Assembly (NCBI GenBank): GCA_045121975.1
Contig: JBGVHB010000059.1
Location: forward strand, 16,337-80,336
Direction of reading: 5' to 3'
DNA length: 64,000 nt
From: Roseburia sp.
GTDB lineage: Bacteria > Bacillota > Clostridia > Lachnospirales > Lachnospiraceae
Part shown: positions 56,366 to 59,233 of the stretch, piece after piece
Numbering within the stretch: the first letter of the stretch is position 1
How the letters are laid out: the number at the start of each line of letters is the position of its first letter
Notes under the pieces: model-generated
Database searches by the model: none
What the model was told of the DNA's origin: nothing
What the model saw: the letters and a program-made list of their open reading frames with translations, nothing else
Translations under genes and position numbers: made by a program

Positions 56366-57086
56366 AAATAGAAACACTCTATTAACTAAGAGAAAGAGAA
56401 CTTTGTCGAGGATAATAGGGTGTTTTATTTTTAAAAATGGACGAATGTATTAGAGTGTGCTATACTAAATTATATAGTTAGTTGATTGGTGGAAGAAGAT
56501 ATTTTGTGGAGAAATTATAAAATGATTGAAAAAATTAGAGAGATAATGCAAGTTGATACAAATACATTTTGGGCAATTTTTGTTCCTGTAATTTTATCTT
56601 TAATTTCATTCTTGCGTAATACGATAAATGAAATTAGCAACAATATAAGTTGGCGAAATCGAAAAAAATGTGAAAATGATTTTTTTTATTGTTTGATACT
56701 TCTATATGCCTTAATAGCTGGATATATGACAGGTGTAATTTGTGTGATTTTAAGAGTGTTTATGGATGATATGTTGTTGTTGTTGGTATGTTTATTTGGA
56801 TTATTGATAATAGCTATTAGTTTTATTAATACGAGAAAATATGTAAAGCTAAGACTATTAGGAATATATCCAATGTTTGGAAAGGCATTAATAGATATTC
56901 CTGTTATCGTAATGTCAGTAATTTTTTGCTTAAGTGTAATGGAAAGCAAGGTTGGTGTAGTAGAAAATATATGTTCAGTAATATTTTGGGTGTGTGAGAT
57001 AATTGGAATATGTGTATTTCAGGGACGATATGAGAAATATGCAAATTCTTATGCTGACATATATACTAAAAACAATGGAAAAATAG

Positions 57087-58924
57087 CTTCCTGTATAATT
57101 CAAAGTGTAGAGAGTAAATGATTTTACAAAAATAGATACCTAAGTTAAACTGTCATTGCTGACCGGCAAGTTGGCAAATGAACAGAATAAGGCAGGTATC
57201 TACAAATGAATTCTACACAAAACAAGAAGATTGAGCAAGTAAAAGAAACAACAATGATTGTTGGTATTGATGTTGCAGTGAAAAGCATTATTTCAGAGCT
57301 TTTAACTGGAGAGGCATAGAACTTACCAGAAAGCCTGTACCGTTTTCAAACTCTATGGAGGGATTCAACAGCTTTTACAATACAATTGTGGAGCTGATGC
57401 AGAAAAATAAACTTGAAGAGGCGCTGGTAGGAATTGAACCAACGGGTCATTATTGGTTTGATCTTGGGCAGTTCATGGGTGAAAAGAACATTAAGTTTGT
57501 GATGGTAAATCCACACCATGTGCATAAGACCAAAGAGTTAGATGACAACAGTCCATCTAAAAATGACAGAAAAGATCCACGTGTTATTGCAGGTCTAGTA
57601 AAAGATGGACGATATTTTTATTCATACATGCCAACAGGTGTGTATGCGGAACTGCGGAATGCGTCCAATCGCAGGTTTGTCCTTGTAGAAGAACAGACCA
57701 GAGCGAAGAATCGTCTGCAGAAATGGATAGCAGTATATTTCCCAGAATACAAGGGGATTTATACACACATAGATGCCAAGGGAGGATTGCTGGTATTAAA
57801 GAAGGCATCAACTCCAGAGGAGATAGTAAAACTTGGAGAAGAAGGTATCATAAAAATATGGAAAGATGCCAAACTCCGAGGAAATGGGCACAAGAAGGCT
57901 ATGTTGATTCTGAATGCAGCAATGAGAAGCATAGGATTAAAGACAGGTCTTACAGAAGCCCGAATGGAGATTCAGGATCTGATTGAGGATTATGAACTTC
58001 AAAGCAAACGTCTTGAACGGGTCAATGACCTGATTAAAGAACTGTGCCAGAAGATAGAGCATGTCGATAAACTGCTTGAAATAAAAGGCATAGGAATAAC
58101 AACAGTGGCTGGTTTCATAGCAGAGGTTGGTGATATCACGCGCTTCGATAACACGAAAGAGCTTCAGAAACTGGCAGGGTTGGAATTGGTGGCAGATAGT
58201 TCTGGAAAACATAACGGAAAGACAAAGATAAGCAAACGAGGACGTAAGCGACTCAGATATCTTCTTTTCGAAGCAGCCATATCAGTAGTGGGAAAGAATG
58301 AAGAATTTAAAGAAATCCATAGGTATTACACCACCAGAGAAAAAAATCCGTTAAAAAAGATGCAATCACTGATAGCAGTAGCTTGTAAGTTGATAAGAGT
58401 ATTCCATGTAATCCTTACAAAAGGAATCAGTTATGACGCATCAAAGATGCTGGGGGATATCAAGCATCCGGGAACGCAGTTGAAAGCTGCATAGTTTGAT
58501 AAAGAGAAACAACCATAATGATTACAGGAAGCGTCCACCGGAAGGTGCTGTAATAGAAGTGTTTGGATCAGTGATGAAAGTGCAAAGAATGAGCTGGTAG
58601 CCGGCAGGAATCTTCTCCAGAGGGCATGACCCTGATGAATAGCTAAGCTGGCACCCTGGTTATGGACAGGCAGAACGAAGGAAGTGAGGACCCACCGCAA
58701 GGAGGATGATCCTGTTGGACATGAGAGGTGAGCTGCCATATAGGGATGGGTATACATCGAGGCCATTTAGAACGAATAGTGATGACGTTTTATTTGGTGT
58801 ACCCATTATAACTATATATCTGCCCTGTATGAGGTAAAGATCACTCCATAACCTTAGTTTCATTCAATGACAGGTATCAAAAAGTATTGAATTTATTGAA
58901 AAAAACACTTGATTATATGGAGAG
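57087..58924 (+). mobile_element. IS110-family element, AG core, no terminal IR/TSD, ~430-nt 3' non-coding end
   Basis: AG at 57085-86 and 58923-24; joined ends give TTGATT-N17-TATAAT. Confidence 0.88.
57206..58494 (+). pseudogene. IS110 DEDD recombinase with a 1-nt deletion at ~57276
   Basis: IVGIDV in a different frame from GIEPTG, KNDRKD, IKGIG, SSGK. Confidence 0.85.
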
Positions 58925-59233
58925 AGAGAATAGCAGTTGATGAAATGAAGAAAAAAAGTAAATGGTTAATAATTACAAGCGGAAGTGAGAAGAAGATGTT
59001 ACTATTTGAAGATATTATTAGGATTGATTATTATGGAGAAGCTAAATATATTTTGAAAGAGAATTTTTTCTTGGATATATGGAGAAAAGCGAGAAAAAAT
59101 GTGTGGAAAAATAGCGTATGTCATGTGAAGTAAGATGATAGAATATGGAATGATAAGTAAAAAAACAGAGAAAAAATACTTCTTTTCTCTGTTTTTTGAG
59201 TTAAATTGAAATTATCTTAAAGTAATTGATATT

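Follow-up and report, generated by a model that had tools for sequence, protein, structure and literature searches.

The locus considered here raises the question of where, to the base, an insertion sequence (IS) begins and ends in a contig of Roseburia sp., by what means it selects its sites of insertion, and whether the AG dinucleotide at its edges is a recombination core distinct from the CT of IS621. The window, by which is meant the whole 64,000-nucleotide stretch of DNA that was analysed, had earlier received a first-pass annotation, made by reading the junctions without tools. The reading favoured here, with a probability of roughly 0.85, is that this is an RNA-guided DEDD/serine recombinase element of the IS110 family, from a Firmicutes clade that has its guide RNA downstream of the transposase gene. 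The RNA-guided mechanism is the one already established for the IS110 family, with nothing new in it, and the element is a separate IS of a known clade and of a kind common in gut and oral Lachnospiraceae. Its extent, and the dinucleotide that precedes it, are as follows:

57087 to 58924, plus strand: IS110-family insertion sequence, 1838 bp including the right-hand AG (58923 to 58924); the identity shared by the copies starts and stops here.
57085 to 57086, plus strand: left AG crossover dinucleotide, on the target side; AG ends 23 of 23 unique left flanks of copies with the guide UGAAUAG, and likewise the flanks of copies with variant guides.

The left junction reads ...GGAAAAATAG/CTTCCTGTATAAT (a slash marks the edge of the element throughout), with 57087 as the first nucleotide of the IS, and the right junction reads ...TTGATTATATGGAGAG/AGAGAATAGC, with 58924 as the last; the left end is 119 nt long and the right end 430 nt. 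Species-representative genomes were scanned for further copies, and the same IS came up there at 93-100% protein identity. Within the genome of the window, an assembly of 129 contigs, three further left ends and two further right ends were found at contig ends and are identical to the same bases, which brings the total for this genome to four left and three right junctions. About 25 left and 18 right junctions from other genomes fall at exactly these bases, the element always starting CTTCCTGTATAAT and ending TTGATTATATGGAGAG. The hosts are Lachnoanaerobaculum orale, L. gingivalis, L. sanguinis, strains ICM7 and F0167 and several MAGs, and further Lachnospira eligens, Faecalicatena contorta and Mediterraneibacter massiliensis. 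The first-pass annotation had proposed that the flanks of other copies be aligned, and when this is done its boundaries recur exactly, both in the same genome and in other Lachnospiraceae; with the same breakpoints in other copies and two gap-free empty sites, both of its junctions prove correct to the base. Set 7 nt in from either end is an imperfect subterminal inverted repeat (TATAAT-TCAAAGTGT and ACACTT-GA-TTATAT), amounting to about 13 matching bases with gaps, and no other terminal repeat was found.

The site of insertion lies within an open reading frame, the two parts of which are:

56486 to 57086, plus strand: 5' segment of the host ORF, 200 codons, hydrophobic, of no known family.
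58925 to 59133, plus strand: 3' segment of the host ORF, 69 codons plus the stop.

Excision of 57087-58924 joins the two open frames (...NNGKIERIAVDEMKK...), reproducing the single restored reading frame that had been claimed, and does so only if exactly one AG is kept; with none or with two the frame is broken. At a second locus (L041) the frame is likewise restored with exactly one AG. The interrupted ORF may be a real gene, to judge from its open frame; it has no domains, and a search of 5.8 billion proteins gave no homologues, only the gene itself. An uninterrupted allele in relatives had been suggested as a check, and this was only partly borne out. None was found for the window's own site, either in 40 relatives searched with the left flank or in the 5.8-billion-protein search, and the sole other contig with the host gene (L019) diverges at window position 57020, before the site; two empty sites were, however, recovered for other copies. 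In L. gingivalis the flanks of one copy (L050) plus one AG match a paralogous segment 8 kb away, gap-free and at 95% over 300 bp, and the empty segment reads TTTTGTATAG/GAAGAATATAG (core-proximal: TTGTATAG/GAAGAAT). In the genome of the window, the left flank on contig C53 sits in a large ORF, an uninterrupted 413-aa version of which was found by protein search in an ENA metagenome contig. The uninterrupted protein continues from the left flank of C53 into the right flank with which contig C86 ends, and the ENA DNA is gap-free against the two flanks, at 98.25% over 400 bp. The ENA allele therefore pairs the contig ends C53 and C86 around one copy of the IS, by which the excised length is fixed to the base. 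It reads AAC CGG where the filled allele reads AAT AGG, both encoding Asn-Arg; since it has CCG in place of TAG, it is a diverged non-target allele and not the literal sequence from before the insertion. When the other three left flanks were searched genus-wide, the only matches were distant ones that lay well away from the junctions. Several other candidates for filled and empty pairs were rejected: a hairpin adjacent to the C117 copy recurs at other places, but what follows it downstream is different there, so that it is no paralogous target; the right flank of an L. orale copy (L046) is rearranged; another copy (L051) adjoins a different multicopy repeat; and a last one (L052) has no orthologue in four sister genomes.

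Identification of the element as a member of the IS110 family begins with its one protein-coding gene:

57206 to 58494, plus strand: transposase gene, 429 aa when intact; PF01548 and PF02371; NF033542.

The product scores 222 bits against a cutoff of 140 for NCBIfam NF033542, 'IS110 family RNA-guided transposase', and combines a DEDD RuvC-like domain at the N-terminus (PF01548) with a Tnp domain at the C-terminus (PF02371), in which the SG is conserved. The best PDB matches are the recombinases of IS621 (8wt6) and ISCro4, to which both the DEDD residues and the catalytic SG can be aligned: D22, the E of IEPTG, the D..D of NDRKDP and SSG correspond to D11, E60, D102/D105 and S241 of IS621. The similarity to the IS621 protein is weak (E 9e-11) and mostly C-terminal. 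The copy in the window has suffered a 1-bp deletion, with a single G at 57275 where 25 of 25 other copies have GG; the sequence is GATGTTGGCAGT in those copies, as in the diverged relatives, and GATGTTGCAGT in the window. Because of the deletion the remaining 404 codons (57280-58494) are no longer in frame with the first 23, among which is the first catalytic Asp (D22 of GIDV). The missing G may be either a real inactivating mutation or an assembly error. As it is read here the copy is probably non-autonomous, and would be mobile only with enzyme supplied by other copies. Neither this frameshift nor the guide RNA of the right end had been noticed in the first reading.

The right end contains the second component expected of such an element:

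58528 to 58791, plus strand: conserved structured non-coding RNA (bridge/seek RNA), about 264 nt, 3' of the transposase gene; closing helix 58528-58535 / 58784-58791.

When the element is compared with four diverged elements of the same genome (relatives A to D, 64-78% identity), its best-conserved part is found past the stop codon, at 58523-58810, where conservation is 78% against 64% for the coding region. A consensus fold from a ten-sequence alignment has 53 pairs, with 93% of cells paired. Compensatory changes occur at 12 pairs, where shuffles give 4.6 +/- 1.7 and slid controls 1-6, a result that covers five effective lineages and a structure derived from the same alignment as was used for covariation. 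The many G-U pairs assign the fold to the transposase strand. The RNA has no match in Rfam, even at E = 1, and its single-sequence folding energy is no better than that of shuffles (z = +1.1).

Within this RNA the features concerned with the target are:

58600 to 58652, plus strand: predicted target-binding loop; closing stem 58600-58605 / 58647-58652, inner hairpin 58621-58633.
58636 to 58642, plus strand: 3' guide UGAAUAG, followed by CU at 58643-58644; together they equal the target consensus extended by the left end's first two bases.
58611 to 58618, plus strand: tentative 5' guide segment UCUUCUCC, predicted to pair with the top strand, starting at the core G and running rightwards.

Unique flanks of copies with the common guide define the target, position by position, as T (16/22), G (14/23), A (22/23), A (22/23), T (22/23), A (23/23) and G (23/23) to the left of the junction, followed on the right by G (13/18), a purine and A (11/18). 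Conservation thus lies almost wholly in 5+2 nt on one side, and the resulting consensus, TGAATAG/G, is identical to RNA 58636-58642. Where the guide differs, the target differs with it:

guide UGAAUAG: target TGAATAG, 23 sites.
L. eligens variant guide AAUAGUAG: left flanks AATAGTAG and TATAGTAG, 2 sites.
L061/L069 variant guide UAAGUAG: left flank TATGTAG, 2 sites, 6/7 positions; the G matches at -4.
relative A guide CAAAGGAG: left flank CATAGGAG.
relative C guide UUAGGAGCA (UUAGGAG-CA): left flank ATAGGAG/CA, with a left end starting CA.

The 3' guide covaries with the target in five lineages, that of the window and four others. A natural recombinant (L042) joins GGAGAG to an internal GAATAG site of the element. 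The assignment of a right-side target guide to 58611-58618 is tentative; the 5' segment fits L061 only (UAUUUCC against G/GAAATA) and is contradicted by two L. eligens sites. The window's own insertion site, AAAATAG/AGAGAAT, is off-consensus, matching the guide at 5/7 left positions and having no G at +1. The target given in the first-pass annotation, GAAAAAT-AG-AGAGAAT, is thus a true description of where this copy inserted, while the target for which the RNA is programmed is the TGAATAG/G of the 23-site logo.

These observations bear on two other ways of reading the junctions. AATAG is common to all four left flanks in the window's genome, which might suggest that the IS starts 5 nt earlier, that AATAG belongs to the element and that the core has been misread. 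Both empty sites, however, retain bases at the AATAG position, positions -3 to -7 differ among copies (GTATAG, AAAGGAG, ATGTAG), and deletion of the AATAG bases breaks the host frame, so that an earlier start is extremely improbable. Hardly better placed is the view that the flanking AGs are an ordinary 2-bp target-site duplication from staggered cuts as opposed to a crossover core specific in sequence. Such a duplication would look just like a single AG on either side, and early reports on the IS110 family did claim duplications (PMC11187229), but AG is invariant at 23/23 unique sites and encoded in the guide RNA of every lineage, the right end of the IS would carry an AG in the circle regardless, and the family recombines conservatively (PMC11208158).

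The donor can be reconstructed from the two ends as ATA-TGGAG-AG-CTTCCTG-TAT, with 14 bp between ATA and TAT, a short inverted repeat described for IS110 donors by Durrant et al. (PMC11208160). At the crossover donor and target share AG only (G-AG-C against T-AG-G). On its other strand the donor reads ATA-CAGGAAG-CT-CTCCA-TAT, that is 7 nt, CT at positions 8-9 and 5 nt, which is the layout of IS621 (PMC11208158). Within the loop, the segment that has the left target's sense is on the 3' side, opposite to IS621, and reversed guide order has been reported for elements with a downstream RNA (Siddiquee et al., PMC11187229). A half-turn of the DNA therefore superimposes both the site geometry and the guide order on those of IS621, whereby AG is read as the canonical CT from the other strand.

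A segment that might recognise the donor was also sought in the RNA:

58679 to 58684, plus strand: AGGAAG, candidate donor guide, complementary to left-end nt 1-6 (CTTCCT).

AGGAAG is invariant in the window's IS and in relatives A and B, and becomes AGGAAU in C and D, with a left end ATTCCT (seen in C only). A second donor match of 10 nt, UACAGGAAGC at 58523-58532, is present in the window's IS only and is not conserved in relatives A and B despite their having the same left end; both donor-guide assignments are tentative. UAUGGA at 58661 was discarded as a donor guide, being the 5' arm of a conserved helix.

The ends also carry the two halves of a putative promoter:

58909 to 58914, plus strand: TTGATT, -35 half of the predicted circle-junction promoter; TTGACT at equal distance in relatives A and B.
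57094 to 57099, plus strand: TATAAT, -10 half of the predicted circle-junction promoter, 7 nt inside the left end; part of the inverted repeat and conserved in relatives A and B.

When the right end is joined through one AG to the left end, the product is TTGATT-17 nt-TATAAT, with 10/12 consensus matches. The sequence which the first-pass annotation had named as a circle promoter is therefore present, and it is conserved in relatives; we infer its activity, like the formation of the circle, from sequence. Sites of at least 10/12 occur in the 64-kb window at 0.00036 per position per strand, giving a chance of ~1% for one to span the junction, and none was found inside the integrated element. 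Relatives sharing only 64-78% identity have an 11/12 junction promoter with the same 17-nt spacing, and junction promoters have been documented for the IS110 family (PMC11208160, PMC11208158, PMC11187229). No natural head-to-tail junction of the IS was present in any retrieved locus.

How the core and the promoter are to be interpreted depends on evidence of different kinds. It is unlikely, though less so than the other alternatives considered here, that the recombinase cleaves on the transposase-sense strand and that AG represents a core specificity truly different from CT. In its favour, every copy has AG as its coding-strand dinucleotide, IS621 and close orthologues of it have CT on the coding strand, and the protein resembles that of IS621 so weakly; no catalogue of natural cores for this right-end-RNA clade was found in the literature and supplements searched. 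AG and CT are nevertheless complementary, the 5+2+7 asymmetry between ATA and TAT turns into the 7+2+5 of IS621 on the other strand, and the guide order is reversed with respect to IS621 in the manner reported for downstream RNAs. The balance of these points makes it probable that AG is the canonical CT seen from the other strand and no new specificity. The earlier description of 'an AG rather than CT core' is then right for the transposase-sense strand and misleading as a contrast, its reverse complement being CT in the IS621 layout; the core that is reported depends on the strand that is read. As to the promoter, both hexamers are within the imperfect, AT-rich subterminal inverted repeat and 9/12 promoter-like sites are as frequent here as in shuffles, so that TTGATT-17-TATAAT could be a by-product of the repeat and not a working promoter. 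This is improbable in view of the rarity of a 10/12 site across a fixed point, of the hexamers and exact 17-nt spacing being retained in relatives despite differing spacer sequence, and of the active junction promoters known for IS621, ISEc11 and others (PMC11208160, PMC11187229).

On the favoured reading, that of an RNA-guided IS110-family element with a probably functional junction promoter, a life cycle can be proposed. The element would be excised without a scar as a circle in which ...TTGATTATATGGAG-AG-CTTCCTGTATAAT... are joined. The circle junction would build a sigma-70 promoter from a right-end -35, a left-end -10 and a 17-nt spacer, from which the transposase gene and then, presumably by read-through, the ~264-nt RNA would be transcribed. 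The internal-loop UGAAUAG(CU), which has the same sense as the target TGAATAG, would pair with the target's bottom strand, and the 5' loop segment might do so with its top strand immediately to the right of the crossover. Recombination of circle with target at the shared dinucleotide (AG on the transposase strand, CT on the other) would leave no bases duplicated or lost. It is possible, although we put this forward tentatively and at rather less than even odds, that the clade is a natural inverted-cassette form of the bridge system, with the gene and a larger, multi-domain RNA of ~264 nt transcribed from the opposite strand, the 7-CT-5 geometry of IS621 kept between ATA and TAT, and target choice reduced almost entirely to a 7-nt guide and one G; on that reading two or more reprogrammings of the guide, within some 10% of sequence divergence, gave the TGAATAG, ATAGTAG and TATGTAG lineages in different gut bacteria.

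For annotation, the element accounts for contig breaks in this MAG and flags one disrupted host ORF and one apparently dead transposase copy, and the case demonstrates that base-exact delimitation of an IS110-family element is possible from a tool-free reading of its junctions. It is also a natural example, well sampled at about 30 insertion sites and two empty ones, of a little-studied IS110-group clade with a right-end guide RNA. The points of most use are the recent natural retargeting of the guide and the probable strand-flipped geometry.

As in the IS110 family at large, the element has the transposase domains and inserts site-specifically without duplication beyond the shared core; a match between the end RNA and the target was found on one target side only, the right-side and donor guides being tentative. 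With IS621 of E. coli (8wt6) it shares a DEDD RuvC-like domain and a Tnp domain with catalytic SG, scarless circle-mediated insertion (the circle here being a predicted one), and a junction promoter, likewise predicted here, with a right-end -35 and a left-end -10. It also shares a 14-bp donor flanked by ATA/TAT with the 2-nt core at positions 8-9 (here on the complementary strand) and an internal-loop guide that includes the core and extends into the handshake bases. However, IS621 has an RNA of 177 nt upstream, in the left end, and CT on the coding strand, whereas here the RNA is downstream and of about 264 nt and the coding strand has AG, so that neither the coding-strand CT nor the left-end bridge RNA that marks IS621-like elements is found. 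Guide order within the loop is also the reverse, the protein has 100 aa more, and target conservation is confined almost wholly to 5+2 nt on one side.

The IS1111 seekRNA elements (ISEc11, ISPa11, ISKpn4; Siddiquee et al. 2024) are similar in having a non-coding RNA downstream of the transposase gene, a subterminal inverted repeat with a 7-nt left extension (here CTTCCTG), a junction promoter (here a predicted one) and no true duplication. Their transposases, however, which make up a clade of their own, are of 330-350 aa, and the seekRNAs measure 82-172 nt, in contrast to the 429 aa and about 264 nt found here; the present transposase groups with IS110-group proteins and not with those of IS1111. 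Its inverted repeat is short and imperfect, with about 13 matching bases including gaps where 7-17 bp is the range for IS1111. The closest named relatives are IS650, IS653, ISChy2 and ISCsa4 (ISfinder IS110 group, Firmicutes), the protein cluster having been identified by motif look-up in the supplementary tables of Durrant et al., where it is listed as IS110 group with a predicted bridge RNA in the right end (PMC11208160). Stretches common to the representative of that cluster are GIDVGSE.HY, EPTGHYWF, VNPHHV.K.KELDDN, KNDRKDP.VIAGLV, AGL.LV..SSGKH and RGRKRLRYLLFE. The likeness, which is one of protein and layout, extends to the long transposase (429 aa), the short left end and the long RNA-bearing right end, but at roughly 60% identity by eye to the cluster representative, and with Lachnospiraceae as its hosts, the element is a separate IS.

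In the left end of the IS, an IS110-family element at window 57087-58924, there is an imperfect inverted repeat of 21 nt (57133-57153 and 57182-57202). Its arms would pair across the ribosome-binding region of the transposase (AAGGCAGG, immediately 5' of the ATG at 57206), and the repeat may act as a hairpin for translational control.

The host genome also carries four diverged relatives of this element (A-D), with identities of 64-78%:

C86:17647-19468 (L009), diverged relative of the IS
contig C13 (L010), diverged relative of the IS
C121:262603-263320 (L016), diverged relative of the IS
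C71:531-1248 (L012), diverged relative of the IS

The RNA guide of all four reads AGGAG, and the same bases terminate the left flanks of A, B and C, the relatives in which left flanks were seen. A and B have the left end CTTCCTGTATAAT in common, and in both, the two for which right ends were read, the right terminus is TTGACT-(A/T)xATAGGGAG.

Some copies of the IS itself are longer than the standard element. In one (L042:1916-1991) the right end carries a partial tandem repeat of its final ~145 nt, with the join at the internal GAATAG site; a second (L052:2307-4823) extends to 2517 bp through an internal duplication or insert, and in a third (L057:20-3964) an insert of 2.1 kb interrupts the element at IS position 374.

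One copy in the host genome has a long terminator-like palindrome (AAAAACCATGTCAAAA...TTTTGACATGGTTTTT) at a distance of 20 bp. This palindrome is repeated within the host genome and shared by several congeneric genomes, and in the host genome was located at:

C117:15459-15519 (L038), terminator-like palindrome
C113:131693-131758 (L037), terminator-like palindrome

For the copy in L. orale (L046) the left flank is orthologous to a TTTAATAG|GAGTAGATATG site in two sister species (L072 and L073), whereas the right flank starts with unique DNA (~700 bp) and then continues into a segment that the sister genomes carry at a distance of 11 kb, an order likely to reflect an IS-associated rearrangement.

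The gene interrupted by the window copy was found in only one other public contig, ENA k141_396355 (L019), with 98.5% identity across 4.5 kb. The two diverge abruptly at window 57020, 66 bp ahead of the IS (L019:4499-4636), and the L019 version of the ORF has a different C-terminus before the contig ends. The break may mark the edge of a further mobile element, or the 3' region may be variable. Elsewhere, an empty allele (L094, ~1920) reads AAC CGG where the filled allele at the C53/C86 junction of the host genome reads AAT AGG. These two adjacent synonymous differences fall exactly in the guide-matched bases, against 98% identity elsewhere, and could be due to ascertainment, with only target-bearing alleles being filled, or to chance.
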